DNA from: Raillietiella orientalis
Lineage: Eukaryota
Assembly (NCBI GenBank): GCA_036172245.1
Contig: JAYWIR010000013.1
Span: forward strand, 2,108,001-2,172,000
Length of the DNA stretch: 64,000 nt
Direction of reading: 5' to 3'
The notes beneath the pieces were generated by a model that was not told the origin of the DNA, did not search any database, and saw nothing but the letters and a program-made list of their open reading frames with translations. The position numbers were made by a program, and so were the translations under genes. Positions within the stretch are counted from its first letter, which is position 1, and each line of letters begins with the position of its first letter. Positions 1 through 41,130 of this stretch are shown here, piece after piece.

Positions 1-3000
1 TGTCAGATTTAAAACTGTTGAACAGGTTTTATTGCCTTTATTAAATAACATCAATTATGAGTGCTTCATTATTTTATGTACTAATTTAATGCTGCATTCT
101 AAAGGCTGAGGGTTTCAAAGAGATATTTGAAAAAGTGAGAGATGAGCAAGTGACCAAGGAAGTAAAGGTTTCTCAACTGGTTTCTGGGAGTTTTCAAAAC
201 GCAGGGAAAGATAAAAATGCAATGCACAGTTCGCTCTCATGCAATGCAAATTCATCCTTAAGTGATGACTCAGATTCAGGAAAAACAAACTCCAAGGTAT
301 TGGTCATATGATTAATGATACATTTTCCCCTGACATTCATTTGTGAAGAATGTTCCTGATTCAACATCAGTGACAGAAAAACCTGTGAAAGGTTTTGGTG
401 ACCAGTTCAAAGCAGCAGCAGGTTCATGGTCGTGTCCCAGTTGTTATGTGGTCAATGGTCCAAGTGTGGCTATCTGTGAAGCATGTCAGGAACCAGCACC
501 TGATATCCAGGTGTTTTAAAATACCATATTTTTTGATTAAAATACGTTATTGCGAATGATGTTAAATATGCTAATGAGACTAATTCGTTAATCTGTGTCA
601 CCAGGCTAGCAGAGACCAGCATGGTAACAAAAATTCTGAAGGCAAGAGCGACACTGGGATCTTCAGTTTGCGAGGTGCAACTGGTTTTACTGTTCCAACC
701 ATTTCCAATCAGACAAATTCTGAAGATACTCACAATCAAGGTGATCGTATTTACATGCAAAGTATTTATTGATTTATTTCAAACCTACTGCTTCAGTATT
801 ATGTTTATAAAAATAGGAGTGCTTTTAAAAACGTGTAGATTGTGATTCATAATGCTCAGGTAGTGAATTTGTTTTTTCCTCCGTGAAAAAGCTCAAATCA
901 CTTTAGTTTTTGTATACAAATTTTGTCAGATGCAAACTGTTTTTCCAGAAAAAATTTTGAAAACAAGTTTCCGTTCAAAATTCATTTAAAGTCTAGCCAG
1001 CTTTTTGAAATTTCAATGTTTCACAGTGAGATTTCAAGAGTTTCTTTTTGTTATCGCAGTGAATTTCTCAAGTTGTTCTTTTATGTTCCATACATGCCCT
1101 GTAAAGTTTTGATGTTTTAGCTCCAGTTGTAGAGAAATTTGTGTTTGGTTCCAAGGAAAAATTTCAATTCAGCTTCGATGTTTGTCCAGCTCCAAGTCTG
1201 AAGTCTCAGACTCCTGATCAGAAGGAGGATGTCTTCAATGAAGCTGCTGATGGTGGTGTTCGTTTCCAGGTTGGCTTATGTGCTGTTCACAAAAAATTTT
1301 AGTATAGCTGTATAGCCTGGTCTTCCCATTCCACAAAAATTAGATATTAAAACTGGTGAAGAGGGTGCAAGTGCAGTATTGTCTGGACGTGCTAAATTTT
1401 ATCGCTTTGACATGAATGAGTGGAAAGAAAAAGGTGTTGGAGATATGAAAAATTTGCGCCACAGCACCAATATCTGTCCGACTTCAAGTCTGAAGTCTCC
1501 ATCTCCTGATCAAAAGGAAGATGGCTACAATGAAGCTGCTGATGGTGTTCATTTCCAGGTTGGTTTGCATGCTCTTCACAAAAAATTATAGTATAGTTGT
1601 ATAGCCTGTTGTGCCCCTTCCACAAAAAGTAGATATCAGAACTGGTGAAGAGGATGAAAGTGTAGTATTCTGTGAACGTGCTAGACTTTATCGCTATGAC
1701 AACAAAGAATGGAAAGAAAAAGGTGTTGGAGATGTGAAAATTTTGTGCCACAATACCAACAAGAGGAAAAGGTTAAAGAATTATTGCTGATGGTTCTGTT
1801 CCAATTTCAGTCTTACAGAATAATCATGAGAAGAGACCAGGTGCTCAAAATGTGTCTAAATCACTATTTGACTCCAGATTTAAAATTCGGAAAAAAAGAT
1901 GAAAAATCATGGTTATGGGCTGCAGTAGATTTTTCCTCAGAAGAACTTAGTAATGAAACACTAGTGTTACGATTTAGAACGGCTGAGATGGCCCGTGCTT
2001 TCAAAGAAGCAGTGGACAAGTGTCTTGTGAGTTATTTCTCATCTTCAACACATGCTATTTGAAACTGACTAGGATGAAGATGCACTAGATTCTAATGCAA
2101 CCGTAGATGAAACTACAGTTCTTGACTGCAGTCCTCATTCTAAACATGGTATGTAAGCAAATACCTAGTATTGTTCACATTATCTTCATAGGTGTAAGTT
2201 CTCCTGAAGTCAGAACACCTGGAGCAGAAGAAGGTAGGATAATAGCTTGATTTATAATGAGAAAAAAAAAAAAGGTTTAAAATTCCATTTCTTTAAAACA
2301 TAGAAATTCAGCTTGTTCAAGTCTTGGAGGCCACTGATGCAGAAAAAAGTTTAGCTGCTGAACTTCAGTTACCTGCTAATTTTTTTTTGTATTCTCAAAA
2401 GAAACCTTGCCCTGGATGCAGGGGCTGCCTACATTCTTCTGATGATGAAGAACAAGATGGTGGTTGTACAAATAAAACAGGGAGTAAGTACCAGTATGAT
2501 TTATCTAGCCATGAAGTTATGTACTTCCATCATTTTGTTCAGGTGAACAATCAATTAATGGGGAAATAGAGGAATCCACTCAAGGACAGCATGATGCTGA
2601 AGAGAATGCTCAGGTAAATTTAGAGTGCCATTTGTTTTCAACTAGTTTTGTTTTTTCCAGGATGCAGTTCCTATAAATAAGGGTGCTAGCTGTAAGTCAT
2701 CATTCCTCTTTGGCACATCAGAGTGTCAGCCTTTATTTGCTGCTGTGGTGCACAACCAAACAGGTAGCATTTTTGGAGGAAGTTTTGGTAAGTTAGCAAA
2801 CGTTCCACGAGTGTTTTATGCCATTAAAACGTCATATAGTCATATAGGGCAAAAAGAGTAATATCATAATTGTATGTGTGTTTTTTTTTTTTTTGCAGGG
2901 AAGCCTGCTCTACTCAAAGTAAACACTGACTTATTTCCATCAGACCAGCAAGAAAACTGTGTAAGACATGCAGATGCTAATGTTTTTGATGCATCGAAAT

Positions 3001-4498
3001 GTGATTTTTCTTTTAAAACAGAAGATCAAAACAGTATGTTTGTGCAAAAATGTTACATGTTAAGCTTTCCTCTAGTTTTTGAATATTCTGCTTCAATATA
3101 TGTGAGAGAGTCTGCAACAGCATGTTGGAAGATCAAACACAAGGGGACAGTTTCTGTTAACAAGACCATATTGGCGTACTATTTAGTGCTTAGAAACGAG
3201 GTGATTTGGTCAATTGTTCGTTCAAAAGCTTGTATTTAGATAGGAGCACTAGAAGACAAGTTCGAGTTCTGTGGGCTTGAAACCTTGAATGTGCTGGAAG
3301 ATCTGGAAAACGGTTGGATTTGGTCAAATAATGCTGATGAAAGTCACTCGGAGTTTGCAATAGTGTTTGAGGTATGCACAAAGATCTAATGAGTGCTTGT
3401 CCTGTTATTGTTTGCCATAATGATTGCGTAGGCATCTCCTTGTGCGTGCTCTCCAAGCCCAGTTACTGATGTACACTTGCTTATGCTGGGTACATATGGC
3501 ATTATGAATATATCTAGATTGAGAATGTAAAACTTGCGATAAATGGGTCGAATAGTCTGTTGCCATTCTTGATATGTTATAACTGATCCAATTCCAGCTA
3601 AGAGGCTGTAGATGGGAATCATTGCTAAAACTGTATATTTTGCACAATTTGTTGTTGTCATTAGGACTCACCATTTGTTACAGAATTCTCTTTTTGGGAA
3701 ATTAAGAAATTTAGTACAAAAGCTAGAATGAGAACAATAAGACTGATAGATGCCAAAAAAATGAAAACATGGTATAATTCTAAAGGTTCAATCATAGGGA
3801 GCTTCCATCTGTTAATTGATCTTAATCCTTGATATTGCAAATCAGTGAAGCATTAGTTATGTTGCTTACCTCTGGTAACAATCTTATAGTAATGCTGGCA
3901 TATTTCACATTGTGGTCGAGCTGACTGAGAAATCCACTTTGTTAAGCATTGCTGCGAACATTAGATGCATTGTAAAAAAGTACCATACCACATGACAAAA
4001 TTGCAAGCTTCCTGTACATCTACATGGGCAAATAAGCTTGCTAGATTGTTCCTCAGTTTCATGGCAAATTCGGCATATCAATTTGTCCTCTTCCTGTAAT
4101 TCGAGCAGGCAGGACTGTGTCATCATTGGGAACACTGTCAGTTATTTACACTTTAGTTTACATATTGTCCATATTGATTGAACTTGTCTGTGCACACAAT
4201 AGAATTTTTCGTGTACCAGTAAACCAATAATATTACATTGTTGAACAGTTTTATGGAGAATTTTAATTGCAACAATGCTTTTCAGTCAGCTGATATTGCA
4301 AATGCTTTCCTGCAAGCATTTCAAAAGTGTAAAACAGATTGCCTCCAAATAAATCCGTCGTGGCAAGCAGCCAGCAGTTCCAGTAATGAAGAATGGCAAA
4401 CGGAATTTGATTCAGGTGAAGATACACAACTTGTGAAAAGCCACCTGCCGGTCTTTTGTAGATTGAGCTTCTGTATGCATCATGCAGATGAAAGATAA
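1..4498 (+). CDS. RANBP2: RanBP2/Nup358 nucleoporin, 3' part (gene begins upstream of the window)
   Basis: Hand-spliced, frame-consistent GT-AG exons: <1-25, 105-296, 349-510, 605-740, 1101-1269, 1316-1558, 1605-1771, 1819-2026, 2073-2148, 2192-2233, 2304-2483, 2543-2613, 2661-2787, 2899-3033, 3076-3200, 3240-3371, 4286-4498. They encode a RanBD end (VRFKTVEQ|AEGFKEIFEK), a RanBP2 zinc finger (GSWSCPSCYVVNGPSVAICEAC), a full RanBD (TGEEDE..RARLYRYD..EWKEKGVGDVKIL..RIIMRRDQVLKMCLNH..SWLW..LRFRTAEMARAFK), the invertebrate LPANFFLY..CPGCRGC motif and a divergent terminal RanBD. The exact 3' end is less certain because a further small intron near 4473 is possible. Confidence 0.88.
1182..1760 (+). 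repeat. Intragenic tandem duplication of about 290 bp (2 diverged copies, each containing the same 46-nt intron)
   Basis: 1182-1471 aligns with 1474-1760, e.g. CAAGTCTGAAGTCTC, AATGAAGCTGCTGATGGTG, TTTCCAG|GTTGG..TATAG|CCTG and GGAAAGAAAAAGGTGTTGGAGAT. Confidence 0.9.
3386..4126 (-). CDS. Membrane-associated RING-CH (MARCH-family) E3 ubiquitin ligase
   Basis: Exons 4126-3989, 3951-3870, 3827-3672, 3630-3386 (introns 37, 42, 41 nt, all GT-AG). C4HC3 RING-CH motif CRICHE..LICPCRCTGSLQFCHV|QCLTKWI..CEIC, followed by two hydrophobic helices (VFIFLASISLIVLILAFVLNFL; VLAMIPIYSLLAGIGSVITY). Confidence 0.88.
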
Positions 4499-4700
4499 TC
4501 CAGGAATAATCAGCAATGTTTAACCATATACCGAGAAATGAACGAATACGGAAGTTAAAATCAGTGAATGCAGCCACACTCCACTACATGTGTAGAAAAA
4601 ATCCGACTAATTGATGTATGCGAAAGAGACCTTGGGCATTTTCCCGAAAATTGGTTAAACTTTTAGACAAAAATCCTTTGTTAACAAGACTTTAAACTGT

Positions 4701-5714
4701 TTATTTAATGTATTTTTCCATGAACTTCTTGTGGAATTCACTCCGCAAGGCATCATTGATGAACCGCTTTTGTGTGCTGTCAGGCTCACCTCTTGCACAG
4801 TTTTTAAAAACCACATCATCATCCCATCGCCGTTTGATCTACGATGCACTAAGCTTAGCCACACAAGACAAATACTCACTTTGAATTCTGACTTAGAAGT
4901 GCCATATTTTTCTGATAACAGGGGATTGCCACTGAGAATGTTTTCCATTCTGATTTTTTCTTCCTCCTGCTTTCTTTCTGCATCCTAATAAAACACAGTG
5001 TCCAGACACTTTGAAATTCAAAACCCACTTTTCGTGCTTCCTCTGCAGCTCTTTCTTGTTTTATCCTCTGTAGTTCTGCCAACAATTCAGCTGTATCGTC
5101 CTCAGAGTTGCTTTCACTGTCTTCATCATCATCAATTGGATCATCAGCATCCAGATTACTTGATGCAACCTGAGCAATCCTTGATTTCTTGCTACCACTA
5201 GCATTAAAATTAATGAGTGCTTACATGTTGCCTCATCAACACTCATTTATGTCATTGCATACCCTTTTTCTTTTAAATGAGATGATTCAATTGAACGATT
5301 ATCTCGACTCTCCCTGGTTCTGTTTAACTGCTCCTTCTGTTTCTCGCTGCGAGCAATTTTTTCATTATCTTCCAATTCTTTTTTAAAGTCCTTGCCTTTC
5401 AACTCTTCTACTGTACCCTGTCCTGTTTCTCTGGAGGGGAAAAGGAAACCACAATGTCACAATCTGACCACAATCATTCACATATGCAACAATAATTCTT
5501 CATTTCCAAAGCCAGTAAGTTAAAACTCTGTGCATTTTCAAGGAAAAAAAAAAATTTGACTCAAGAACAGGACTCATTTTTACCTGTGTTTCAATTTTGT
5601 GTGAGAAGGGAGGTCTCTACTTGAGTACTGTTTTGACATTGCACTCAAATCCTTCTCTCCCCTGCCAGTACCTCCCCTGGCTGGTTCCCATGTAGGCCTT
5701 GCAGCAGTAGTCAT
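4701..5714 (-). CDS. CWC15: Spliceosome-associated protein CWC15
   Basis: Exons 5714-5584, 5430-5263, 5197-5029, 4984-4880, 4838-4701. Hallmark motifs [69 protein letters not shown] and [20 protein letters not shown]. Confidence 0.96.
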
Positions 5715-14002: not shown

Positions 14003-14049
14003 AACAAATGATACTATCGTGCAGGTGCCAACAACTTTGCTGCTAGTTG

Positions 14050-16330: not shown

Positions 16331-16399
16331 AGTCCCCCCCCCCCCTTTCTGGCTAAATTCGAAATTTCGGATTTCCTCTTGTCTTCCATTCACGCTCCG

Positions 16400-17330
16400 T
16401 GCTTATTTTGAGAACGGAGTTCGTTTCTGGATGCTTTTCCTCCGCTTTGTCCCCCCCCTCCTTCCTTTCGTCCGCTCTCAAAATATGCAGCAGCGCGGCG
16501 CATTTTTAGAGGAAGAAGACAACTCTGCGCCGTTCCAGGACTGCGCCGGAACCGACGGTGTTCGCGTGGCGCCTCTGCCCTGACTGCTCGCCCGATGCAC
16601 TCAGGTGCACCGCCGCAACGGCGGGTAGAATTTCCCTCCTCTGCTGCGAGTCTTCCCTGGAGAGCACGCTCGCCGGGTTGCCGGCCTCGCTCGCTCGCGG
16701 CCAAGTGGCACATCTCCGGGGGACAACTTGCTCGCATAACCGCCGCGGATGATCCTCCACGTGCTCTCCGCCGAGTGAATAAAGCATGCGCTCTCATGCC
16801 AAGAGCACTCTAGGGGTGACGCGCGCGGGGCAGAGAAACTTCCATGTCCTCGCCCGGGGACGAAAAGAGCGCCGTTTCGCCGCTGACCCCGCTCCCAAGA
16901 CACCGCACCGCCTCCCCCTCCAGCAGGCAGGTAGGCTTCCGCGTCTTCGCGACGGTGCCTCGCCGGAACATCTCGAGAGCAGACAAACCACGCGGCCTGT
17001 CCAACCCTCTTCACATGTTCCCTTCTTCCGCTTCGAGTGCTATTCCCACTCCGCCGTCCCCGAGGACGCCGGAATTCTCCCGGGGACGCTAAAGGGACGG
17101 CCTCTTCAACCGTTCGAAGCGCCCGGCTTCTCGATGGCTCTGTCTCGACATACTGCTCCGCGCGCCACCAGCAGGTGAATTGCTGATGGCGCGGGGAGCA
17201 TCGAATTTAGATAGGGCGTGTCCGCATTCCCGAGCGCCTCCCAAACCCACGTCTTTCGTCAGTGAAGGCATCCCGGACCCAGCGGTCCCTGAGATGACTC
17301 GTGCCAATGGTGGTGACGTCTCGACGAATA
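16400..17330 (-). mobile_element. Degraded non-LTR (APE-region) relic
   Basis: GGVGIAL, KPTCLLEGE and EDH remnants in APE order, frameshifted. Confidence 0.3.
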
Positions 17331-17479
17331 TTTATAGAACGGATCGGTTGCGGATACTCTTCGGAAGGGAGAGGGGTGTCACCTGTGGCGCCACGTTTAT
17401 TTTTAAGAGCCGCAGAGCGGAAGAGTTGCCGCGCTCCCCCTCCCCTCCTAGGAATCTGTCGCTCCTCTTCTTGAAGCCC

Positions 17480-18380
17480 GGATGACGGTGGTGCTGCGCG
17501 TACGCGAGAAACCGCTGCCGTTCCGAATGCCTCGCCGCTCGCGAGCGGGGCCGGCTGCTGGAGGGAGGGGGGGCAGCTGCAGGACCTCCGCGGCTCGAGG
17601 AACAGCCAGCAGCAGCAGCGACCTCTACGGGCGGTTCCGCTTCTGGCGGCGGACGGTGTCACGTGAGCTCCGAGACCGCGGGGCGGGATCAGAAGTCGGC
17701 AGAACGGGGGGGTAGAGGATCGGTGAGAGCGACTCCGCAGCGAGGAAGTCGCGCCGGAGGGCTCACCAGGCAAGCGGAGGCCACCGCCAAGCCTTGTGCC
17801 AAGCGCGAGCGAGGCGAAGGCCGCTCGACGTTCGCCCCCCACCTCACTCGGAGAGTAGCCGAAGCTCCACGGGTACCTCCCTCGTCTCGAACGGGCCTTG
17901 CAGGGTTCCGAGAAGAGCCCGGATCTGCCTCCTCCTCGGGCCTCCTGCACCATCGGGATCCTCGGTCTCGGCAGGAGCTTCGCTTCGTTCACGAGCCACC
18001 ACCAGACAGGCCACCCCGAGCTGCGGGCGTTTCCGTCGACTCCTCGGACAGCTCCCGTGCTCGCGACGTGCTCCCCACGGAGATCGCAAGATCCGCAGCT
18101 TCCGCCACCACCCTCCTCCGTGACGTCACCTTCAGTGCGTCCAAACCGAGAAACTCCGAGAACTCGCTTGCAGAAACCCTGCTTCCGCGCGGAAACCGGT
18201 CGAGAGTTGGCCGCATGTTGGGCAGCCGGGCAGCGGCTGCCTACCTTTGCGTATGCGCAGGCAGAAGGAAGGAGGGGAGGAGGAAGGGAGAAGGCTCTCA
18301 CGGGACTCCCCGAGACCTCGGTCGCTCCCGAAGAGCCAAAACATGAGGAGGAGAAGGCGGGCGGGAGATCTCAAAGAGCC
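17480..18380 (+). mobile_element. Degraded ORF1 (gag-like) relic of the same family
   Basis: PCFRAETGRELAACW..QRLPTFAYAQA resembles a decayed CCHC knuckle. A similar segment (..GRPISCVPTYVYADA) recurs on the minus strand at about 42800. Confidence 0.35.
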
Positions 18381-18391
18381 GGATTAAAGCT

Positions 18392-20300
18392 TTCCATCCA
18401 GGTCACTCCCGGGAGGGAAATCTTCGTAAAAAATTGACTAGCCGGGAACACGCCGGTTCCCGGCTGAAGACAAAACAAGTCCGAGGGGGGAGAAGAGGTC
18501 CGCTGACACACAGGTCGGGACATCCCAGAACGGGAGGGAAGGGGCAGGGAAGGGCTTTTGGTATCCACTTAGTGTGCACCGGAATGAATATGCAAACGAC
18601 CGGGAAAGTCCGAAGCGGAAAGGAGTGGGAAGCGAGGAAAATAAAATAAAATAAAAAAGAATAAAGGAAGGATGGGGTCAAGGGTCACCGGAGTCAAGTG
18701 CCGGCGATCTCCGCCTTCACTTCTTCTACGGGGCGAGGTCACCTTGCCGCCGCCCTCGTATGGGCGGATGCCATCACGGTGACCTCCTTCCGCTGTGTGG
18801 TCGTCTCGATCGAATGGCAGGCCGAGACGATGAAGCGGACGCGGCCCACCGTTGCCGATGCCAGCCTGCGCCACACGGTTCCTGGAGGGCGCCGCAGTCC
18901 AAGAGCAGGTGAGAAGATGACCCCCACCGACGCGCACCTGGCGCAACATCTCTGAGACTCTGTAGGCCCTTCCTGGAGACGAGACGAGGGTGCAGGCGCT
19001 GGCTGTACCGGGATCTCCGGTGCAGAGACTGCAGAACCGCCTGCCTCTAGGTCACAGGGAACGCGGGAGTGTTCGAACACACGGGAGGGATCACGGGTTC
19101 GCCGGGGCCGACGCTTGGAATTTCGGACCACAGAAGGAGTCCCGCCGCCTGGATACACAGAGTGGCAGCGTCCGCCAGCTCGCGCATCTTCCAGCCGCCC
19201 GGAAGTTCCGTCTTTCCAGCGGCAGTGCAAGGCAAGTCCCACCTCGCCGTTTGGCAGCTGTCGCCGCTTGCCCTCAGGGCAGACGACTCTGCGGCAAGGA
19301 CTTTGGCAGCCAGGGTGGACCATTTCGTCGAGTCCTGCATCTTCGCTCCCAAGGGATGGCTGAGGAAGTGGCTCAGGGAGCGAAGTTCCTCCTGGCGCAG
19401 GACCCGGGGCCGGGATGCGCAGACCGGGACGCTACCGCCTCCTGCTGACAGTCATGCGAGTTCAGAGGGCGGCAGGAGAAGGGATGGAAGCTCGTCGCCG
19501 TCCGCGTCGCTGCTCGCGAGGAGCTATGGCAGTCGGTGGGCCGAACGCAGCTCTTCCGGCTCCGGAATCGGATCCCCATAGGGACAGCGGGGATGAGAAT
19601 GGGAGCGGAAGCCGGGAGGCTGTGACTGCAGCGGCAGATCCTCTCTCTACGTGGACCACCGCCCGATGCATGCCCTTGGGGACGAAAGAACGAGGTGGTG
19701 CGCCTCCCTTCGCCTAGGAACGGCCTCAGCAAACTGCAGGTGGGGAAGGTCGACCGAGCGGTCGCTCTCGGTCGACAACAGGGGTGGGAGACTGCCTGCC
19801 TCTTGGGGTCGCACCCCAGGTTGGCACCCGGGGGCACGCAGGAAGAAAGCAAAGTGGAATGGAAGCTGCACTGGCAGCAGGTCATTGGGGGGCAGAGGCG
19901 TTAGCGCTTGCCAGCTTCCGCATCTTCTCGGCCGTCTCGACTCGCTCTCCCTCCTCCTCCTCCTGATCGCCACCACCACTAGCACCACTACTACCGTCGT
20001 CACCGCCATCCTCCGCCCTTGCTTCCATGGAGGCCGCTCGCCTCCGCATTCCTTCCTCTCTTCCTCCAGTTCCAGTGCCCTTTCCGAGGTCGAGGACTCC
20101 CACGCGCGGGTGCTGCCTCCGCGTAGGAATCGCCGTCCAGACCCAGGAACGCGGTTGCCGCGGTGACCGCGGGGATGTGGTCTCGCTCCCATGACGAACA
20201 CGGGCCATGGGGCAGGTAGGGGTGAGAAGGGGGAGGCGCAACCGCTCTCTCGGAGTCTCTTCCTCCTCCCCTCCCCCCTTGTAGTCACAGTCGCAGGACT
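18392..20300 (-). mobile_element. Tx1/L1-like relic, RT thumb plus C-terminus and 3' UTR (frameshifted)
   Basis: KWSTLAAKVLAAESSALRASGDSCQTARW..GGWKMRELADAAT..GLLLWSE..VIPPVCSNTPAFPVT and HLLLDCGAL align closely with ORF 13028-13996. It has the same 3' hairpin (18440-18465). The 5' boundary is approximate. Confidence 0.75.
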
Positions 20301-20375
20301 GAGCCGCTCTCGGTAGCGGTTCAGGCGGATCGATCCCCCCTCCCTTCTTGTCTTTTTTTTCCTTTTCGTTTCCTG

Positions 20376-20381
20376 TTTATT
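20376..20381 (-). promoter_or_regulatory. Candidate polyadenylation signal of the PLD6-like gene
   Basis: AATAAA on the minus strand about 52 nt after the stop codon, followed by an A-rich tract (20345-20371). Confidence 0.5.
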
Positions 20382-20432
20382 CCAAACGAGGGTGCAGTCC
20401 GCTTTCGCCTCCTGGAGAGCGACTTCGCGCGG

Positions 20433-21425
20433 TCACATGTAGCAGCGTGCGGCGGCGTCGGCGGCGGCGGTGTCTCCGCAGGTGACCACCTTCTCGGTCA
20501 GCTGGCAGGCGACCTCATTGCGCAGCCGGACGAACTCCTTGTAGTAGGGCAGCACGATGACGGGGTTGTTGGTGATGAGGAGGTTCTCGTGGTTGCCTTG
20601 GAGGCCCTGCACGGACCAGTTGAAGGAGCCGTTGACCAGCACGGTCCTGTCCACGACCACGAATTTGTGGTGCATCAGGAAAGGCGAGATCTTGGGGAAA
20701 ATCTGCACCCCTGCCGCCTTCAGCTTGTCCACTTCCTCCTTGGAGACGCTGCACCCGAACTCCTGGTCCATGATCAGCCTCACCGCCACCCCGCGCATCT
20801 GCGCCTCGACGAGCAGGCAGGTGAGGTCCGGGTGGGAGATCATGAAGAGGCAGCCGTCGATCGACTCCTTCGCCTCGGAGATGCAGGTGCTGATCAACTT
20901 GTGCCCCGGGTTGATGGGCCCGCGGGGGCCCTGGACGTCCGAGGGCAGGAACACGATGTGGTGGTAGACGCTGGCCCTGGCCCGGCGGACGCAGGAGAAC
21001 GGCAGGCAGGCGATCGACTTGCACAGGGAACAGCACCTGCCGAGCATCCTCTTCACCCTCCGCGAGCCCTTCCGGACCGGCGCCCAGCTCTTCAGGCGTA
21101 CCGCCAGGTCGTAGAGGCAGAAATGGTACAGGAACTGGAAGATCAGGAAGAACAGGATGGTGAGCACGACCACCTGCCTCCAGGACGAGTCCTTGGCGAA
21201 GAGCCAGTTCCACAGGTTGTTGAACCGCAGCACCAGCGGGAGGAGGAGCTTGCGGAAGAACTCCGAGATGATGCCCAGTCTCGTCGTAGGGCCCTTTGCC
21301 TCGGCGAGAGCCCCCGCCTTCGCCCGGTCGGGCTCATCGGCTTTGCTCGCCTTGCCCTTGTCGGCGCCGGGCTTGCCCTTCTTCTCCGGGGCCTTCTTGC
21401 CCTTGTCTAACTTCTTCGGCGCCAT
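20433..21425 (-). CDS. PLD6: PLD6/Zucchini/MitoPLD-family single-HKD phospholipase D/nuclease, intronless, 330 aa
   Basis: One complete HKD signature LMHHKFVVVD..LVNGSFNWS..G..GNHEN, upstream AKESIDGCLF..L..A..RGVAVRLIMD, and an N-terminal TM helix (VVVLTILFFLIFQFLYHF). Uninterrupted ORF with strong G/C third-position bias. Confidence 0.92.
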   Translation of the reverse strand: MAPKKLDKGKKAPEKKGKPGADKGKASKADEPDRAKAGALAEAKGPTTRLGIISEFFRKLLLPLVLRFNNLWNWLFAKDSSWRQVVVLTILFFLIFQFLYHFCLYDLAVRLKSWAPVRKGSRRVKRMLGRCCSLCKSIACLPFSCVRRARASVYHHIVFLPSDVQGPRGPINPGHKLISTCISEAKESIDGCLFMISHPDLTCLLVEAQMRGVAVRLIMDQEFGCSVSKEEVDKLKAAGVQIFPKISPFLMHHKFVVVDRTVLVNGSFNWSVQGLQGNHENLLITNNPVIVLPYYKEFVRLRNEVACQLTEKVVTCGDTAAADAAARCYM

Positions 21426-22699
21426 CCGAACGCGAGAGACACCGGTGAGGGACGCTCGGGTCCAGAGACGACGACCATCGGAATTTCGAAGCGCTGCCGA
21501 GTCGCGTCCAGCACGGCTCGAATCTTTGTCTTCTCTTCGTTTCGCCTGCGCGCCCGCGCCGTGTGCGTGGGCGTTTCCTCTTTCCTTCTTCTTTTCTTCT
21601 TGTTTTTCGTTTTCTTAGCAACGAATTTTCGAGCTGAGGATCGCGGCGTTAGGAATGTGGTGATGGGTTCGGATCGAGGAGCGGAGACGGGAAGGGGAAA
21701 GGGGCGAGAGAGACGCCGCCACGCGTCCACGCCTCCGATCTCCACGACCCACACCCCGTCCCGGATCAGGATCGGAAAGGCCCCCTCCCCCGCGGATCCC
21801 TGTGAGTTAGCACCGCGCGCCCTGCCGGCAGTCACTTTCCGAGGCGAGCTAAAAATAAACCCGCGCGCTGCCTCTTCCGTCGTCGGGTCGCCTCGAGACG
21901 TTCGGACAGGGGGGGGGGGGGTTGGCGTGGCGTCACACAAACGCGCGCGAGTCTAAATTTAGCCGCCTCTGCGCTCGGCCGCCTTCATCCCCGACTTCCC
22001 TCCCCCCTCTTGGCCCCTCTTGGGATCACGAGAGCGAGGGCGCCTGCATCACCCGCATCCGGCCCAGGACGGCTTCGATGACGCGGATTTTCGAGAGCGA
22101 TCCCGCCGCGAGTCGAGCGAGCTGCGCTCGCCTCCGTGAATAAACCGACCCTTTCCAGGTATCGGGGAGGGTGCGAACGACCCAACCCTCCCCCGACCCG
22201 CCAGAGAGGGGAGAGTCGACCGCTGCCTAAAAATGAAGGGAAGCACCGCTGCACCTCCCTCCCCCCCGCTCTTCCTACGACCAGCTCGAACGATGATCCC
22301 GCGTCAAAGAGTTTTGGCATCCTGAGGGAGACGGAGGGGAACGTCGCGGAGTCTCCAGGTGCTTTCGCGCGCGCAGTCTCCGAAGCACGGGCTCGCGTCC
22401 TTGGAGACAACGTGGTTCATCAGCTTGGTTTGACGAGCACTTTGTGATGACTTGGTCGTTTTCGACATGCGGCACACCGCGTTCATGCTAAACGCCACGC
22501 AGACCTCCACGCTAGAGAACGCGGTCATCATCATGCACTCTCGTGCCACACCACAGCCACCCGGGCCGCTTTGCATTTCGTTGTTGGAACGCTCCCCCCC
22601 CCCCACCACCCCTACTGTCACGCATTCGCTCTGGTGACGCTTGCGTGGAGGCAGTTATTTCTCCTCACCGCCCTACGCCTTGAAGTCCACCACCGCAGG

Positions 22700-24290
22700 C
22701 ACCGTCCCGACAGCCCGTTTCGCCGAAGGATGCTATGTGAGCGCCCCCTTTCCTCCCTTACTCTTTCCGCAGCCTGTTCCCATTTCATGGATCGGTATTC
22801 ATGCGACATGGATTTCGCGCTAGAGAGAGAGAAAGAAAGAAAAAAATGCTTGCGGGAGCTCCGCATAGCGCACCAGAGAGCAACGAGCCGTTCTTCAGTT
22901 GCGCTTTCACGCAGAGGGGGGCCCCGCGGCAAATAGGAAGGAACGCGTTTCCCACGACCGTGCCTTAATGGCAGGCAGACGACGTCGCCAAACTTCCTTA
23001 CCACGGAGTAAGGACGCTCGTCCGGAACGGGGCCGGGCAACAGAAACTAACTCAGCGCGGTAGGAACTAGCAGCCCCGGCAGCTGGAGACACAAGAACGA
23101 GGAACCGCTGCGTGGGCGCGGCCAGTCCTTCATCTTCTGGGCACGGAACGGAGGAGCGACGGATTGGACGTGAGTCTTTGACGACCTGCAGAGAACCAAA
23201 GGGTGCGATGACGGGTAGGGAGTTACCCCGAATCAGCGTCCGCCTGCTCCGAACCGCGTTTTCTGCCGTTCCAAGGTCGACCACACAGCCTGCGTCTATT
23301 TATTAATTTAATGTATGGCATGTACGCGCATGAGTTGTGGCCGCTGGCGAGGCATTTGAAAACAAAAAGCAGCAAATAGGGATAGGGCATCCGTTCAGCG
23401 GGCTCATGGGACCATGGGCAGGGCTGCTTGTTTTGCTTTTCCTCCAAAGTGGTTGCCGCTTGTTTTTACCTTCCATGTGCGTGCGTTTTCGTCTTGGGCT
23501 TGCGAGGCCGATTGCTAATTTGGGGTAGCGGTGAGGAATGCCTGCTGCCAAAGAAGGATGGCTGCAACGGAGTTTCGAAATCCTCCCACGGTTTCGAGTA
23601 CCGTCCATGTTGGACACCGGAAATCCAGCAGGTACACCGCAAGTTTCAGCAAAACCGGCGGCAAGGTACTTCCCAAGCCGCTTCCTGAACCTCCAGATTG
23701 GGGTGCAACGCACCCGTTGAGAGTGACAGGACAAACGATTCGACAGCCCTTGTGGCGACGAAAGAGAGCGAAGCGGGCTAATGAAACCGGCGTGACGAGG
23801 AGTGTTGCTCGGCGAAGAGGAAACCCAAGCCTCCCTTTCTTCCGGGACAGACTCCACTCACGGATGAGCCGTCGTGTCGACTCGCCTGCTGCCTTCTGGC
23901 GGGAGGTGCACTCGTATTCTCTCAGCTTTCTTCACCAACGACTGCTACTTCAAGCAGCGCAGAAGAAACACTCGAATAACCTTCGTACCCGTTCTCCTTG
24001 CGCTTGTCGGGCGGGGGAGAGCGTCCTGTCCTGTCCGGATCGTACTCTCGTTCGGAGAGCCATCAACATTTGATTGTCCGAGATCTAGCTTACGGTTGAT
24101 GAGGCAAAGATGCGCAGGATGTTTCAGTTGATATTCAGGAACCATCTACGAGAACTCGTTGGTCAGAGACGGTTGAGTGGACCGGATGACAACATCCCTC
24201 ACTGACAGCGAGCTATGAGGGTTATGTACCCTTCATCACTGTTCCGCTATTGGAGGTGGGAAAAAGAGTAGGGACAAAGAATTGGAACTA
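22700..24290 (+). mobile_element. Degraded Tx1/L1-like RT relic
   Basis: SKVDH (KAFDRVDH), LMYG and QIGIGHPFSGL (RQGCPLSG) remnants, followed by AFWREV (LW.R) near the C-terminus. Confidence 0.45.
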
Positions 24291-25434: not shown

Positions 25435-28011
25435 CTACTTTATCTTCAATTCTTTTCCCTCTTTAGGAGATGTTTTGAGGATGGACTTTTTAGGCACCTT
25501 ATTGGACAGCATGGTACTGTTCAGTTTTTCCAATATTGCATTGAAATTATCCTTTCCCATATAGTCTATCTGGCCGGACTCCCAAGCGTAGTAACGATCC
25601 CCTTCTGATACCAGGTTTACAGATGCCAGGGATGCAGCTAATCCTGCCTGAAATTACGTAAATTAGAACAGCGTCAAGAACAACACCAAGCTAGGCTGAG
25701 TGACATTAGCATGAAGGAATCAGAAGAATGGATGGGGTCAGAAAGAAGTAAGAATGTAAAGGATCAAACTTACATCCAGACTATGTCCAGATGAGAACAA
25801 GCAAGGCATGCTAGCACTTTTGAACTGCAATTGAGTCATGAGCTCAGTCTCAGTACCAAGAGTAACCCGACCAGAGCCGCTCTCTAACTCGATCTCAGGG
25901 AGAAGGGAGGGAGCAGGAGTGGAGCAGAAGGAAAACGACGGAGACTTTGCTTCTCTGAAGTCCAAATTCGACTGTTCAACAGTTGGGTGCACTCTTAACA
26001 ACTCCTCAAGCTTTGTTGCCTGTGTTTGCAACTGGGCAAATATTTGGCAAACAATGTGAAAGCGATTTAACAGTTCCATACATTTCTGATAGCATTGCGC
26101 ATCATTGCCAGTTAGATATTTTTGAATCAACTGATTTATCTTTTCATCAAGTAATGAGAAAACTACTAGCAGATGATCCAGAAGCATAATTTCATCACTT
26201 AGCTGCAGCTGTTCATCTAGCAATGCATGTACGCCTGTTTCACAGAGCTCCCTTTTGTAAGGTTCTGCAGCCCATTCCACACGGCTGCTGCTGGACTCCT
26301 TCCTCTTTTTTCTCTGCCGTGATTCAAATGGCACATGAGTTTGCTTTTCATTTATTGGAAATTTCACATCAGCAATTTCAGAATCACCATTCTCAATGTC
26401 ATCGAGCTTTTTCTGGATCTCCTCAAAGCATGGCTCCATCTTGCAATCAAACCAAACAGGAGGATTTCCATCCCATTCCACAGGTATGCAGCTTTTGGAA
26501 CAATCCCCATCATCACTGTTTGCTTGGTGCTCCACTGATGTGTGTGATATTAAGGGAATAGGTCTGAGGGGACAACTTGCGATACCCTGGCCCTCATGCT
26601 GATAAGGCAACAAGTCCTCAACGAATTTACCTAAACTCTGATGAACAGAACGGAAGGAACAATGGGGTAAGCTTCCCATGCCACTTAAATATCCAGGAAC
26701 ATAATCTGCAGGGAAAGGTAACTGGGAGTGTGGTTGAAAGTCATTCATGACATGAGGAAAAGGATAGAGACAATGATCTGGAATCAATCCAGATGACTGG
26801 TTTGGCAACAGGCAGAAATCAAAGTAGGATGGTTCACAGGGAATGTAACATGGCCCATCCCATCTATCAAAATCAGAGGAACAATGAGTCAAGGTTTCCT
26901 GAGTCAGATCAATCTGATCAACAGTTGTCAGGCAGGATGAAGAATGAGTAAGTTTCACTTGGAAGCTATCGACCAGCCAGCTCTAGAAGAGCAGGAAGTC
27001 AACAGGATGATAGGCAAATTAAAAGCTTGTTAAAACCAAGGAATTACCATTTCTGGACTCAGATGGGGCAGGACATCTTTTTCACACAGATCCCACCACT
27101 GCTGAAGATAAATATCTGTCAGTTTGCTTTCTCCTCTACAACGGTGTTTATGCATCCAGGGTTTGTTACCACCCAAAAAGTGTACAATCTTCACGTGGTC
27201 AGCACACCTGAGGGCAGCAATATCCATTAAGCATTGCTTTCAACCATGATTACTAACTCCTTGTACGCAGGGATGTATGTGTAACTGACACTGGAGACCA
27301 TATTATACACAAATGGTAGATGCTTGCTGAAGTCACTCAAATGGCTTTTAAAATATTTATTCAACAGGCCTTGATCTCCACCTATGCACTGCAATGTGAA
27401 AATCAGAGTCCCTTAAGTCCTTCTTTACCATCAAAACTGCCTTCTGACAGGGCTAATTGCAAAAGAGCAGTATATGTGTCCAAAGATGGCCGAAACACAA
27501 ATACTCCGGTATTAAAATAATCTGGCCAACCAGCATCTCGAGCTGCTGAAAACTCTTCCTTTTCAAATAACTCATCACAATGCTGAACTACCTGCACACC
27601 AAATGTGAGGTTATAGTTGTGATTCCACACTTACCAAAGTGTCAGAGTCCAAAAACACACACTTTGAAAACTGGGTCAAACGCCAGCAATGCAATTTGGT
27701 GAATGTAACACCTAAATCCGGCCTACCCATCAGTGACAAGTTAATATCATCTCCAGAATCCAGAACATTTACCATTTCAACATAATCGAATACAGATCTC
27801 AACAGATCTCTGACAAGGGAGGGGGGGGGGAATTAATTGTTCAGTCAAGAAACTACTATCAGTACCTCATGGCGGTAGTGACTTCATTCGTGATCATAAT
27901 AACTAAGGGACGTGTAGTACCCACTTTTTTCAATGAATGAGCCAAAACCAAAGCTCCCAGTGCATATGAATCATTAGTTGCTAATGTTACCCAAGCTTGA
28001 TCATCCACCAT
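25435..28011 (-). CDS. GYG1: Glycogenin (GT8) with a large internal exon
   Basis: Exons 28011-27866, 27809-27635, 27591-27429, 27381-27258, 27207-27048, 26982-25774, 25647-25435. Motifs [72 protein letters not shown], the acceptor-Tyr region [21 protein letters not shown] and the C-terminal synthase-binding [21 protein letters not shown]. Confidence 0.95.
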
Positions 28012-34879: not shown

Positions 34880-37300
34880 TGATGAAGCGATGTGCCCGTG
34901 GAGTAAATCATCGTGAAGCGTTACGTGAAACGAGAACCGCGTGACAAATCTGCGCTCGTTCATCAGCAAGTCCGACCCACCGGGGAGGATGACAAACTGT
35001 CAGAAGACGCACAAAGGCTGGCCAATGAGTCCGGCACGTTTACCACTGGCAACTGCCTCCAAACGACTCACCTGTCCATACAACACGGTAAAGAAATTAG
35101 CAAAGGAAACGCTCAGAGAAGTGGTCCATAAAAGAATCTTCGAACCAGCGACGGACGAAAATCTCGGGGATTTCCTCCAGGAGATCCGCACAACGCAACA
35201 GGAACGCCAAGAGTCTTTGGGCAAAAGGAAGGAGGGCCTCAAGAAGAACAAAAGCCCTCTGGATATTCAACAATGGGAAACCCACCATAACGGTCGCCGG
35301 CGTCATCTTCAGCGGCAGCACGAGGAGGAAGGTTACCTCCAGCGTAGGAGCACTGCAGAGAGAGCACACATGGCAATCCCTAATTCAAAAACACATGAGT
35401 CAGGGGTAAGCCATGCAGTGTGTGAGCATGCACCACGCCTCAAGTCTCTTCCTCGCCAACGGAAGTCACCTGAGATTCGAGGACTACAAATTCATCCACG
35501 CATCCAGACTAAACATGCTACCAGTCAGGGCAGTCAGGGCTCTATGTGGAGCGCAGATCCAGGAGCCAAGCGCGGAACAGGTACGATGTTTCCTGTACTC
35601 GCGTAACAGCTGCACGCTCTGGGAGATCCTGGAAGATCCCGCGAAGAGTGCATGGGAAAACAGAACCTCCTTCCCCGCCGCGCTGCCCTCCTTTAGAGAG
35701 CACACGGACAGCAGCCTTACGGCTAGATGGGAGGTTATCGTGGAAATCTCCGGAAAAAGAAGAGGACTGGAAGAGTGGACGATGAACCAGCTCACCGACG
35801 CTGCGACCCGAATCGCTCGACCTCATGGACTTTTGCGCTGGGGTGTGCTACTGGGTATTCCGGAGGAAGACCTGCAGTGGCCCCCGGTGCTCATGAACAC
35901 CCGCACCTTCCCCTTAAACTAGCACAAGTCGACATTGATGCTGCTGCACTGGGACCTCTTGTGCAATGCCCGCCGGCATCATTGGACACGGGGTGGTGTG
36001 GATCCAGACTGTGTAAGGTGTGGGAGCAGAAATCCCTTCCGCACCTTCTAGTGCACTGCCCCTTTGGGAGCGCTTTGCCGCGACCTTGCGGATCCCCGAC
36101 AACCCCAGAAGCGTTTTGAAGCGCCTGTTCGTGATCGACGCCCTCACGCCGGCCGCATCCCTAGCAGCACTCTGCTGCCTACGCGGCGGGACCGTGGTTG
36201 CTTGGAGTAGCAACGCTAGAGGAGGCCAGGACGACAGGAACGCCACCCATTTTGCTGTCCTCTTTATGAGGACAGCGTCGAGATGGCTCCATCTGGGAGT
36301 CTTGAAACAGGAACTCGCTGGCATCCTTAAAAGGATCCAGAGGACACCCTCCAGCACACAGTGGCCCTTCCCGAACCCCTCATTTTTTTCATTGTTTTTT
36401 GTTTGATTTTTATTTCTTTTTGTTTGTGTCTTTCCCTGTGCTGCCGAGGCAAAGTCCGCTGGCCTGCGTGGCAGTTCCCAGCAGGTTCCTTTCGTAGTTA
36501 TAAGTAACGTGGCAGGATCAAACGTCCTGCCACAGACGTAAGTTTATTTTATCAATAAATGCCCCGGATTGACCGGATGTCAACTAGTCAGGATTGGAAC
36601 CAAGATGAAGCGGGAAGAACTCGCGTGTCGGCGCTGCCGGACAGAAGACGAGACGTTGTCTCACATACAAAACGTTCCTCTGTTCCTGGCACGCCGCAAC
36701 GCGATTCAAGAGATAATCGAAAAGGCTGTAGTGGATGAAACGAAATGGACCCTTGTGTCCAGCAACCAGGAAGTTCCAAGAACTTCCCTCTTAAAACCGA
36801 ATTGGGTAATAGGAAAAGGAAACCGGGTATTCGTTCTGGACGCCTACGAAAATGGGAGAGAGGCGTTCAGCGCAGCCAGAAGAAGCAAAGAGGAAAAATA
36901 CAAGGAAGTAGCCCTCCGGCTGGACAACGAGGGAAAGCAACGCAAGGTACACGCATTTATCGTTGGCTCTCTGGGAGCCTGGGATCCAGGAAATGAGTAA
37001 GTACTGCAAGATCTGGGAATTTCGAGGAAGGAATTGGTGACAATGAGGCACCGGATGGTGGCCTCGTGCATCCGGTACTCCAGCGACATCTATGCAGTCC
37101 ATGCGCCATGGAAAGGCCACAACCGGCCGGAGAACCCCACCTGTTAGCTCTTACTATACGGAAGATAGGAAGCGGAGGAAGCAACATGATGAGGGGCGAC
37201 CTAGTGCCCCAGATAAACAGAGGAAGAACTGAGGAAGGATCTCCAGACCCCCCCCCCTCCCTGTAACCAGTTATGTAACTGTAAATATGAACAATGAAAC
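34880..37300 (+). mobile_element. 5'-truncated NeSL/Utopia-clade (RLE) non-LTR retrotransposon, split by a nested insertion at 35530-36583
   Basis: KRLTCPYNTVKKLA..VVHKRI..DFL; SQG..SSLFL..G.HLRFEDYKFIHASRLNMLPVR; CRRC..DETLSHI..RRNAIQ..KPNWVI..YENGREAFSAAR..KEEKY..AFIVGSLGAWDPGNE..LGI..MVASCIRYSSDIY. This is the CCHC plus PD-D-K restriction-like endonuclease region typical of NeSL/Utopia, with stops and deletions. Confidence 0.85.
35530..36583 (+). mobile_element. 5'-truncated Tx1/L1-like copy nested in the Utopia-like element
   Basis: ARWEV..GLEEWTMNQLTDAAT..GLLRWG..PEEDLQWPPVLMNTRTFP, CVRC../HLLVHC, LWERFAATL, ALCCLR, RWLHL..ELAGILKR. Flanked by C[C/T]AGTCAGG at 35521-35529 and 36584-36592. 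Confidence 0.82.
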
Positions 37301-39729: not shown

Positions 39730-41130
39730 GCGAATGGTTGGGCGCACCCAGCCATGACGCGAACGAATACACAGCTGCAAGATAATTCATGCACTATTAT
39801 TCTTGATGTACCAGACGGTCAAGGTGTTTGACACAAACCCCGTGGAGCACCCGAAACGATGTCTCGAGGGATGGAAGCCGGGTCCGTTATTGTCGTGCCA
39901 AGCCCAAGTGATTTGCGTTCTTGGAGACCCGTCAAACCGTCTAGAACTTTCTCAACCAGGCTCTTACTCCGCGTGCTTCGATTCCTTTACTTGAAGAATG
40001 CGCTGGAGGAAAACCTGGATACATGAGCATTCGAATGCACCGCGTAAATCGGTGTGTCCTTTCCCGGAACATCCTTGGTCTCGAGTTCTTGTGCTCTCCA
40101 ACAGAAGACGGACTCTCGGGAAATAGGGCAGTCGCCCGCATCAGTCAAAAAAAACTCCCGCAATTGGGGATGGAGTTGGGAGGAAATTCATCTCCGGAAT
40201 TTCATCCCGGCAACGGCAAGGTCTGCCGAGGACTCGTACATTTGCAACGCAAACAAAAGTGATCGAATAGATGAATGACCATAGCAGGAAAAGAGATGGC
40301 GATGGTAGTAAACTCTCCTCGCGTTTAGACGTACCTTGCGCGCGCGGCTAGACCTGGCCCGTTCCCGTCTCAGCGCTTGGGTCATTCGATGGAAGCAGGA
40401 CAGCCGCTCTCCGGGACCTTCAAGAGGAGATGCCTCATCCGGTTGCTGCAAGAGTGCTGATAGGAGGATCTCCACGTTCAGACTGGTCATGCGAGCATCC
40501 CCGAAGGCACCCGACGAAGGTACCAAGACGGAGGAAGCGGACGAAACACGCGTAAGGTCATCCCATGTTTGGGAAGGTTTCGCGCCTCGGCCGCTGGCAG
40601 ATAGGAAGCGACGGCGTTTCGCGTCTCCGCGGACGGGAAGGAAGAACTGTTGCACCGGGACCTCCCGTGCAACGCACACCAACATCCCTGGGCCTGGGGG
40701 GTGAGGGATGATCCCGGACTGTCGCAGGTGCGGGGAACGGGAATCCCTCCTGCACCTGCTTGTGGACTGCACTACCCTCCGACCCCTGTGGGGGCGTTTC
40801 GGAGCGACCCTCCCGATCCCGGATGGCAGCTCCAAGGACGTCTTACGGCTCCTCTTCGCGCGTCGCGCCCTGCAGCCAGCCGCAGTCCCAGCAGCGCTCT
40901 GCTGCATCCGCGGGATTGCGGCGACCTGGAGTAAAGCTAACAGAGGGACACTGTCCATTTCGATTTCTGCGGATGGCGGTACCAAATGGTCCTACCTGGA
41001 ACCTATTCGGATGGACCTAACCGGCATCCTGGAAAGGATGAAGACTCCCTGCAGAGGACAGGGATCCCTTCCCGGCCCTCTTAAAGATTCTTATTTACCC
41101 TTTCTTTTTCTTTTTGTTTTTTCCCTCCCC
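39730..41130 (+). mobile_element. Tx1/L1-like relic, RT remnants plus C-terminus
   Basis: KVFDT..LEGWKPGP (KAFD..FGFGP), NANKS and RLSAW, then the well-preserved CRRCGERESLLHLLVDCTTLRPLWGRF..ALCCIRGI..KWSYL..DLTGILER. Confidence 0.75.

Follow-up and report, generated by a model that had tools for sequence, protein, structure and literature searches.

A strongly diverged, probably functional PLD6/Zucchini-type gene without the family zinc finger, in a GC-rich island that carries decayed repeats

Among the features that define the PLD6/Zucchini family is a CCCH zinc finger, placed between the FFPD strand and the domain's first helix. The characterised animal members act on single-stranded piRNA precursors, and cardiolipin is a further substrate that has been reported. 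Mouse and human PLD6 (MitoPLD) and Drosophila Zucchini have one HKD motif in a single PLDc_2 domain, a helix N-terminal to that domain and an FFPD-like strand before the first helix, and they form a symmetric dimer via the HKD residues. In the part of PMC10474768 available to us, the family is described as HKD nucleases with an anchor in the mitochondrial outer membrane and a narrow groove for single-stranded RNA. Bacterial Nuc (1byr) and NucT (6ehi) have the minimal single-HKD fold with no zinc finger, and differ from the animal proteins in having neither the membrane helix nor the FFPD-like strand context. The protein described here, encoded in a 64-kb stretch of DNA (the window), shares with the animal proteins the single domain and motif, the preceding helix, the FFPD-like strand (VFLPSD in its case) and, as a prediction, the dimer. 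It departs from them in lacking the finger.

The gene is an intronless coding sequence (20433..21425, minus strand, stop codon included) for a 330-aa protein, P0001, and its frame of 330 codons is intact from ATG to TGA. GC at codon positions 1, 2 and 3 is 0.56, 0.41 and 0.94, and the 500-bp flanks have a GC of 0.63. Upstream, GC3 is 0.48–0.68 (0.52 immediately before the ATG); it rises to 0.96 in codons 1–25 and drops to 0.68 past the stop codon. In a 50-codon sliding scan of the whole window this periodicity was confined to 20431–21465, apart from a 150-bp blip at 58216–58365. As the GC3 of 0.94 starts at the ATG, ends at the stop and is without equal elsewhere in the window, the frame is real coding sequence, beyond chance. 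From stop to stop it is 393 codons long, and the longest frame in 200 shuffles of 16001–24000 was 362. A sequence-only reading of this DNA had described a complete, intronless, single-HKD frame with all catalytic motifs, and the frame, the domain match and the motif alignment agree with it. Its remark that the codons mostly end in G or C, unlike those of the AT-rich neighbours, also holds, with GC3 of 0.28–0.43 in the ORFs of the neighbouring CWC15 gene and RanBP exon.

The PLDc_2 catalytic domain (20523..20888, minus strand) occupies residues 180–301 (Pfam E 1.5e-26; also supported by the AF2 model and Foldseek). Its single HKD active-site motif, H252-x-K254-x4-D259-x6-G266-S267-x-N269 (20619..20672, minus strand), is complete, and N278, E280 and N281 are also present; in alignment A1 (15 sequences) the columns concerned are invariant or nearly so. 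All 25 of the invariant columns of A1 are retained. One departure is at W302, which is arginine here although at least 90% of the relatives in the alignment have the tryptophan. Mouse and human PLD6 and fly Zucchini are the best matches in sequence and fold among solved structures. By sequence (phmmer) the PLD6 chains 9lkx_K (7.9e-22) and 4ggj (1.5e-19) come first, with fly Zucchini and bacterial Nuc and NucT ranking below them. The AF2 model has a mean pLDDT of 72.8, and of 84–96 in most 10-residue blocks of the core. Foldseek matches it best to 4ggj, which is mouse Zucchini, with an E-value of 2.2e-12 and a TM-score on the target of 0.78, though when the two structures are aligned only about 30% of residues are identical. 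Mouse Zucchini takes the first two ranks, and NucT and Nuc are close behind; for these bacterial proteins the TM-score is 0.79–0.81 on the target, but in sequence they are less similar than PLD6 (E 5.2e-9 and 1.3e-6).

Prediction of a homodimer gave a score of 0.78, against 0.00 for the best control, with at least 97% contact agreement across three runs and a partner pLDDT of at least 81. Of 30 proteins whose solved structures are pairs of one chain, 21 attain this scoring mark, as against none of 23 solved as single chains. The predicted interface is made of the HKD residues (249–255, 265–268 and 277–281). Since similar dimers have already been solved, this pass may come from the model's memory of the Nuc and Zucchini structures.

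N-terminal to the domain is a single strong hydrophobic helix, as in the PLD6 family. It is predicted at residues 83–108 (21102..21179, minus strand), where the Kyte-Doolittle 19-residue mean reaches 2.35, and AF2 places a helix at 82–114. In the family this helix is at the N-terminus, whereas here it is shifted inward by a lysine-rich extension of residues 1–50 (21276..21425, minus strand). The extension contains 13 lysines and has a net charge of +8, and is disordered in the AF2 model; in A1, none of the 11 PLD6 rows of eukaryote type has anything aligned with it. That it is translated follows from the GC3 of codons 1–25, set against that of the sequence directly upstream.

After the helix comes a basic linker, about 45 residues long and containing five cysteines, another difference from the family. 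These cysteines (C131, C132, C135, C140 and C145; 20991..21035, minus strand) lie upstream of strand beta-1 and 20–30 residues upstream of the usual zinc-finger site, in a part of the model with a pLDDT of 40–46. At the usual site, after the FFPD-like motif, A1 shows no CCCH finger in this protein, which instead has VFLPSDVQGPRGPIN, 11 residues with no cysteine. A C..C..C..H insert is present in 8 of the 11 eukaryote-type rows and missing from P0017, P0020 and the present protein.

Relatives are distant. The best pairwise identity among the matches listed (545 were found) is with P0017, at 48% across 35% of the protein's length, and none of the databases searched contained a relative exceeding about 48%. 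In metagenomes there are nine loci with relatives, in the domain only, at 30–48% identity over it. In an 80-row tree the domain is on the side of 13 named animal PLD6 sequences, apart from seven named bacteria (SH-aLRT 96), where it branches off as the sister of the 25 animal-type rows taken together; its end branch is 1.73 against a median of 0.13, about 13 times as long. In a 62-row domain tree it falls within the animal group, together with tandem proteins of Darwinula and Ephemera. Both trees put it on the animal side, but its exact place differs between them, and both are quick searches subject to a long-branch caveat. The fast evolution of the protein could reflect relaxed constraint or altered function.

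The tandem proteins, from Darwinula stevensoni (P0002) and Ephemera danica (P0005), also have the top whole-protein scores among the matches listed (5.6e-46 and 7.6e-35). Each has two PLD domains per chain where the present protein has one, and the high scores are made up of two matches each, at 32–39% identity apiece. The first Darwinula domain likewise lacks the zinc-finger cysteines. The grouping in the domain tree (SH-aLRT 93 and 80) may nevertheless be an artefact, since all its members are long branches. A second comparison is with the single-domain P0016, P0017 and P0020, which both trees keep together as one group, on short branches and deep within the animal clade. P0017 and P0020 are also without the zinc-finger cysteines, but all three differ from the present protein in having the membrane helix at the N-terminus and no lysine-rich extension.

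The reading that we favour, and hold to be probable, is that this is a genuine and probably functional animal-type PLD6/Zucchini gene, for a membrane-anchored single-HKD phosphodiesterase that has strongly diverged. Most likely it is an ordinary, though divergent, member of the known family, because nothing indicates a nematode or PIWI-less host. By analogy with the family, the hydrophobic helix would anchor the protein in a membrane, presumably the mitochondrial outer membrane. Two catalytic domains would pair, as modelled, and their two HKD motifs would make one active site; this joint site would cleave a phosphodiester bond in a substrate that the family suggests. In a host that has PIWI, the enzyme might on the same analogy be expected to act in piRNA biogenesis. 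Should it simply be the host's PLD6 gene, its importance is small: a family already well studied gains one more sequence, a very diverged one, in which the HKD core and dimer interface persist despite an absent zinc finger and a longer N-terminus. It would matter more if it were a second copy that arose by retroposition and is expressed in a pattern of its own.

Such a copy is the best surviving alternative, though an unlikely one: a processed retrocopy, the lineage-specific second paralogue of a canonical PLD6, arising when mRNA reverse-transcribed by a LINE inserted in the repeat-bearing island, and now either newly functional or drifting to a pseudogene. The gene has no introns, against four in the roughly 230 codons of CWC15, but in many animals the PLD6 genes are themselves poor in introns, so that their lack is weak evidence. 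An AATAAA poly(A) signal (20376..20381, minus strand, by direct reading of the sequence) lies 51 nt past the stop and is followed by an A-rich tract, as a retrocopy would have. The very long branch also fits. On the upstream side a purine-rich motif (21575..21620, minus strand) resembles, in pairwise alignment, the stretch at 20335–20375 just past the poly(A) signal; the two are a possible, though weak, candidate for the target-site duplication of a retrocopy. The shared pattern RAAACGAAAA occurs three times in the window, with 0.74 expected, and two of the three flank the gene on the same strand; however, it is of low complexity and was picked post hoc, and three or more were seen in 6 of 100 shuffles. 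Against the pseudogene form of this alternative, the gene retains a sharp codon periodicity and has lost none of its catalytic residues, so it is not a decayed one.

The retrocopy alternative also draws on the surroundings, where decayed repeats with weak zf-RVT hints come within 1.1 kb of the gene. Comparison of the window's ORFs with the window (tblastn) gave four decayed copies of one dispersed repeat family, at 31–55% amino acid identity. The nearest (18979..19326, minus strand) lies 1.1 kb downstream of the gene and has 44–56% identity to 13392–13828, which is within the longest copy, P0124 (13031..14074, minus strand), which itself resembles three further parts of the window. The third (35410..37000, plus strand; similarity at 35551–36400) continues in translation into a CxxC...ETLxH stretch, which may resemble the C-termini of R2-type LINEs; this copy is without a Pfam match, and its 36542–36997 part gave nothing relevant in PDB. 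The fourth, at 40647..41078, was found by similarity, with no strand assigned. Sub-threshold zf-RVT matches are present in the longest copy (E 0.15) and the fourth (E 0.09). P0124 had no match among 1.84 billion representatives, and zf-RVT occurs in 24–29% of the members of its atlas neighbours; possibly it is the C-terminal part of a non-LTR retrotransposon ORF2. The gene had been placed by the sequence-only reading among decayed transposable elements. The four copies bear out the decayed repeats, but no reverse transcriptase, RNase H, integrase, gag or transposase Pfam domain was found in the 793 ORF translations scanned (316 of 321 ORFs of at least 90 aa and 477 of 548 of 45–89 aa), so the description is confirmed only in part. 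The window has one further repeat pair, of 225 bp.

Far less probable than a retrocopy is the earlier proposal that the host is a clade I nematode that has lost PIWI and has retained the gene for a PIWI-independent job, in mitochondrial lipid signalling or in making small RNAs for another Argonaute. What the neighbouring genes say of the host is as follows. The 3′ part of a RanBP2/Nup358-like gene (334..3236, plus strand; Pfam and PDB matches) has a zinc ribbon, RanBP1 domain exons and a weak IR1-like motif. A CWC15 gene (4704..5713, minus strand; Cwf_Cwc_15 on five ORFs, and human CWC15 in PDB) is AT-rich and CpG-depleted, with five exons and four short GT-AG introns of 41–152 bp. Ankyrin exons are present at 9.7–10.2 kb and an AT-rich exon at 25.7–27 kb. 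The CpG observed/expected ratio is 0.25–0.37 in the AT-rich gene bodies (0.36 in the CWC15 bin, 4001–6000) against about 1 in the GC-rich island, a value suggestive of an island that is free of methylation. The RanBP2-like, CWC15 and ankyrin neighbours, together with a CpG depletion limited to AT-rich gene bodies, indicate a metazoan with gene-body methylation.

The premise that clade I nematodes are without PIWI agrees with PMC4323106, the portion of which available to us gives clades I–IV as lacking PRG-1/PIWI, and gives DNA methylation in Trichinella and methylation machinery in Romanomermis. On that portion, nothing in the shortness of the introns, the AT-richness of the genes or their CpG depletion is incompatible with clade I. 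A Zucchini-type gene would be unexpected in a PIWI-less host, and the missing zinc finger and long branch would fit an altered function. However, nothing puts the window in Nematoda, and the nematode identification is left without support. CWC15 exon 1 is nearer to human (36 of 44 residues) than to C. elegans (31 of 44), though the exons of this gene are too conserved to discriminate taxa. The rhabditid nematode acceptor consensus is TTTCAG, and the CWC15 acceptors are TAG in three of four cases and CAG in one, none being TTTCAG. The RanBP2-like gene with its weak IR1-like motif also speaks against it, and no Trichinella or Trichuris protein is among the named rows of the 120 matches listed (of 545 found). 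The sole database match of the RanBP exon is from an insect, Timema, at 57%; with the ostracod and mayfly partners in the domain tree this makes two taxon hints, and they point weakly to arthropods. The 414-aa exon P0122 gave no match in a near-length search and no usable match in the atlas.

A wider form of this idea is a long shot: that in some PIWI-less lineage a zinc-finger-less, N-extended PLD6 relative has been maintained by selection for a PIWI-independent job, as a natural separation-of-function variant of Zucchini. Examples of what it might then do are the cutting of single-stranded transcripts of the repeat island for another Argonaute, or the production of phosphatidic acid at mitochondria. 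If the host did prove to be PIWI-less, the gene would testify directly to a function that Zucchini-type enzymes have independently of piRNAs.

It is least likely of all, to the point of being barely credible, that the gene is foreign, whether transferred from a bacterium, virus or symbiont or contributed by a contaminant that the assembler joined, since the features that suggest it (GC3 so far above that of the neighbours, the undepleted CpG of the island and identity of up to 42% to Pseudomonas proteins among the matches listed) are outweighed by the animal-side placement away from the seven named bacterial rows, the eukaryotic layout of helix, FFPD-like strand and domain where the bacterial rows have a different N-terminus, the AATAAA signal, a search of viral contigs that gave no relative, flanks without the coding periodicity of a bacterial or viral insert, and the alternation of GC-rich and AT-rich blocks with copies of one repeat family, at 13, 19, 35.5 and 40.7 kb, to either side of AT-rich exons.

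As that repeat family flanks both the PLD6-type gene and the 25.7–27 kb exon, the GC/AT mosaic belongs to one genome and is not an assembly chimera. A location of the gene inside an intron between the ankyrin exons and the 25.7–27 kb exon was considered and is unlikely, because CpG depletion is absent across 12–24 kb. Rfam and tRNA scans of the window gave no matches. GC-rich and AT-rich blocks alternate several times in the window, with junctions near 12.5, 24.5, 29 and 40 kb, and the PLD6-type gene stands alone in a GC-rich, CpG-rich, non-coding island with old repeat remnants, flanked by housekeeping genes that are AT-rich and CpG-depleted; a gene of such high GC3, in such an island and among AT-rich genes, may interest specialists in genome evolution.

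The Zucchini/PLD6-type gene on the minus strand of 20433–21425 is a 330-codon frame, ATG to TGA, found by ORF search, and it is coding sequence; a chance ORF in GC-rich DNA is rejected. GC at its codon positions 1, 2 and 3 is 0.56, 0.41 and 0.94 (0.63 in the 500-bp flanks). Measured in-frame in 25-codon blocks, GC3 is 0.48–0.68 in the five blocks 5′ of the ATG, 0.96 in the first block past it, 0.76–1.0 over the remainder and 0.68 past the stop. Of the ORFs in the window that are 100 aa or longer, just two, this one and its antisense shadow, combine GC3 of at least 0.8 with a GC3 minus GC2 above 0.3, and a frame-free sliding scan of the window gives a periodicity signal only at 20431–21465 and in one 150-bp blip (58216–58365). 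The longest ORF in 200 shuffles of 16001–24000 is 362 codons; that observed is 393 stop-to-stop. Because periodicity extends over the first 50 codons as well, translation probably begins at the first ATG; M127, the next Met in frame, is C-terminal to the membrane helix.

The sequence-only reading was right that the ORF is complete, has a single HKD and contains every catalytic motif. PLDc_2 is its single Pfam domain (residues 180–301, E 1.5e-26) and 25 of 25 invariant columns of a 15-sequence alignment are kept, the HKD motif being H252-x-K254-x4-D259-x6-G266-S267-x-N269, with N278, E280 and N281 also invariant. The top solved-structure sequence matches, 9lkx_K (7.9e-22) and 4ggj (1.5e-19), are both named mitochondrial cardiolipin hydrolase (PLD6); fly Zucchini (6.8e-11) and then bacterial Nuc (5.2e-9) match more weakly. 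The AF2 model has a mean pLDDT of 72.8, with the catalytic core mostly at 84–96 per 10-residue block, and Foldseek ranks mouse Zucchini 4ggj first (E 2.2e-12; TM-score on the target 0.78), ahead of NucT, Nuc and fly Zucchini. Modelled as two copies, residues 150–330 score 0.78 versus 0.00 for the best control; among proteins solved as same-chain pairs 21 of 30 come up to this mark, among those solved as single chains 0 of 23. Between runs, 97% of contacts or more are shared, the partner pLDDT is at least 81, and the modelled interface consists of the HKD residues of both chains. The score shows likeness and, Nuc and Zucchini dimers being solved, may be memory. The protein would act as a membrane-anchored homodimeric phosphodiesterase.

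Its N-terminus (residues 1–50) is rich in lysine, with 13 K and a net charge of +8, and comes out disordered in the AF2 model, which has a second, weaker helix at residues 49–75. The sole strongly hydrophobic segment, residues 83–108, is followed by a very basic stretch at 109–160 (net +13, five cysteines, pLDDT 40–46). In the same alignment the strand HHIVFLPSD is the counterpart of the '(V/L)xFFPD' strand of relatives, after which 8 of the 11 eukaryote-type rows carry a C..C..C..H insert of 20–25 residues; the query has VQGPRGPINPG there, without cysteine. Five Cys at residues 131–145 (20991–21035, minus strand; CCxxCxxxxCxxxxC, then HH at 155–156) lie directly upstream of the first PLD-domain strand, the canonical CCCH finger site being empty. 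They are possibly a relocated metal site, in a part of the model that is of low confidence.

When 5.8 billion proteins were searched by word index, 545 matched, and there is no close relative among the 120 listed. Identity among these peaks at 48%, with P0017, a single-domain relative, over 35% of the query; named PLD6 proteins of annelid, mollusc, spider and tick origin are at 41–46%. The two top-scoring matches, from Darwinula stevensoni and Ephemera danica, are tandem double-PLD proteins whose score is the sum of two 32–39% matches, and a metagenome search gave nine loci at 30–48% identity, domain only. In a tree of 80 rows (the query, 78 listed matches of at most 270 aa and Thecamonas, with 41 longer matches omitted) the query groups with the side of 13 named animal proteins, away from 7 named bacteria (SH-aLRT 96); all 25 animal-type rows together are its sister group, and its end branch measures 1.73 versus a median of 0.13. 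In another, of 62 rows (the query and 61 domain segments of 54 matches, tandem proteins split), it falls within the animal group, beside the second Darwinula domain (93) and a Darwinula/Ephemera set (80). Both trees are quick searches, and long branches lead to the query and to its partners, so they are read only as 'animal-type, strongly diverged'. The ORF probably encodes a working member of the animal PLD6/Zucchini family, one that has diverged strongly. The absent zinc finger, long basic N-terminus and long branch, and a setting in which such a GC3 (0.94) occurs within a CpG-rich non-coding island, make it worth noting within the family without amounting to a new kind of system.

That the gene is a retro-paralogue is rather unlikely. 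It is intronless, AATAAA stands at 20376–20381, 51 nt past the stop and with an A-rich tract next, and purine-rich motifs at 21575–21620 and 20335–20375 are alike. Their RAAACGAAAA core occurs three times in the window (0.74 expected), twice flanking the gene; however, three matches also occur in 6 of 100 shuffles and the pattern was picked post hoc, so the motif pair is a lead only.

The 'retrotransposon graveyard' proposed around the gene shrinks to four decayed copies of one family (31–55% identity in protein-level self-comparison); 793 ORF translations of the window held no RT, RNase H, integrase, gag or transposase domain. The copies are at 13031–14074 (minus strand, the longest), 18979–19326 (minus strand, 1.1 kb downstream of the PLD gene), 35551–36400 (plus strand) and 40647–41078. 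zf-RVT is sub-threshold in two (E 0.15 and 0.09) and present in 24–29% of members among atlas neighbours of the longest, which had no match among 1.84 billion representatives. The same self-comparison found no second copy of the PLD ORF within the window; the ORF is therefore not part of the repeated unit. Self-comparison at the DNA level yields only a duplication in the RanBP2-like gene and one 225-bp dispersed pair (14397–14619 and 32170–32392, 81% identity), possibly a short non-autonomous element, with weaker protein-level likeness continuing at 14670–14846 and 32549–32659. A CxxC...ETLxH stretch (36542–37000) found no PDB match.

That the host is a PIWI-less nematode, as had been supposed, is very improbable. 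The literature premises are sound as far as the sources consulted go: Table 1 of PMC4323106 has nematode clades I–IV without PRG-1/PIWI, and PMC10474768 describes Zucchini as an HKD nuclease that is tethered to the outer mitochondrial membrane and whose ssRNA groove is narrow. Nothing supports applying these premises to this window. The neighbouring genes indicate a metazoan, by Nup358-type architecture and by CWC15 exon 1 (36/44 identical to human, 31/44 to C. elegans). The RanBP1 domain shares only about half of its residues with RanBP2 of human and Xenopus (counted by hand from the alignment) and is therefore not a vertebrate orthologue; its exon has one database match, an insect (57%). This and the Darwinula/Ephemera grouping are two weak hints that would point towards arthropods, with none towards nematodes. 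A foreign origin of the PLD gene is also very unlikely, and viral contigs searched gave no relative of the query.

The recognisable neighbours sit in AT-rich parts of a compositional mosaic. The RanBP2/Nup358-like 3′ end comprises a zinc ribbon, RanBP1 domain exons and a weak IR1-like motif. A 289-bp tandem duplication (1156–1759, plus strand, 82–84% identity) copies the exon for the first half of a RanBP1 domain. The IR1-like stretch (2297–2566, plus strand; Pfam IR1-M 3.5e-4, below cut-off; PDB 1z5s_D, E 0.06) weakly resembles the human IR1 SUMO-E3 motif, a region that is not known outside vertebrates. A RINGv (MARCH-type) exon (3908–4141, minus strand) separates this gene from CWC15 (five exons, GT-AG introns of 41–152 bp), and farther along are two ankyrin-repeat exons (9725–10191, minus strand); at human 11q21, CWC15 and the ankyrin gene ANKRD49 are presumably near PIWIL4. 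A 414-codon ORF (25741–26982, minus strand) in AT-rich, CpG-depleted DNA is coding-like (GC1/2/3 0.51/0.38/0.41); with no Pfam domain, near-length-search homologue or usable atlas match, it is probably one large exon from a gene restricted to its lineage.

GC is 32–39% at 1–12 kb, 56–65% at 16–24 kb, 36–43% at 25–29 kb, 46–55% at 29–38 kb and 52–72% at 40–62 kb, with sharp boundaries near 12.5, 24.5, 29 and 40 kb. CpG o/e is 0.25–0.37 over the AT-rich gene bodies (1–6 kb, 26–28 kb) and 0.8–1.15 in GC-rich parts, which is the signature of mosaic methylation confined to gene bodies. Sliding and ORF scans otherwise found no codon periodicity, and Pfam no domain, in the GC-rich parts. At 40000–62000, about 20 kb, mostly of 60–72% GC with CpG o/e of 0.8–1.15, lack both and have almost no internal repeats; at 52–55 kb there is a purine-rich strand bias (GC skew from +0.12 to +0.22; AT skew as high as +0.32).
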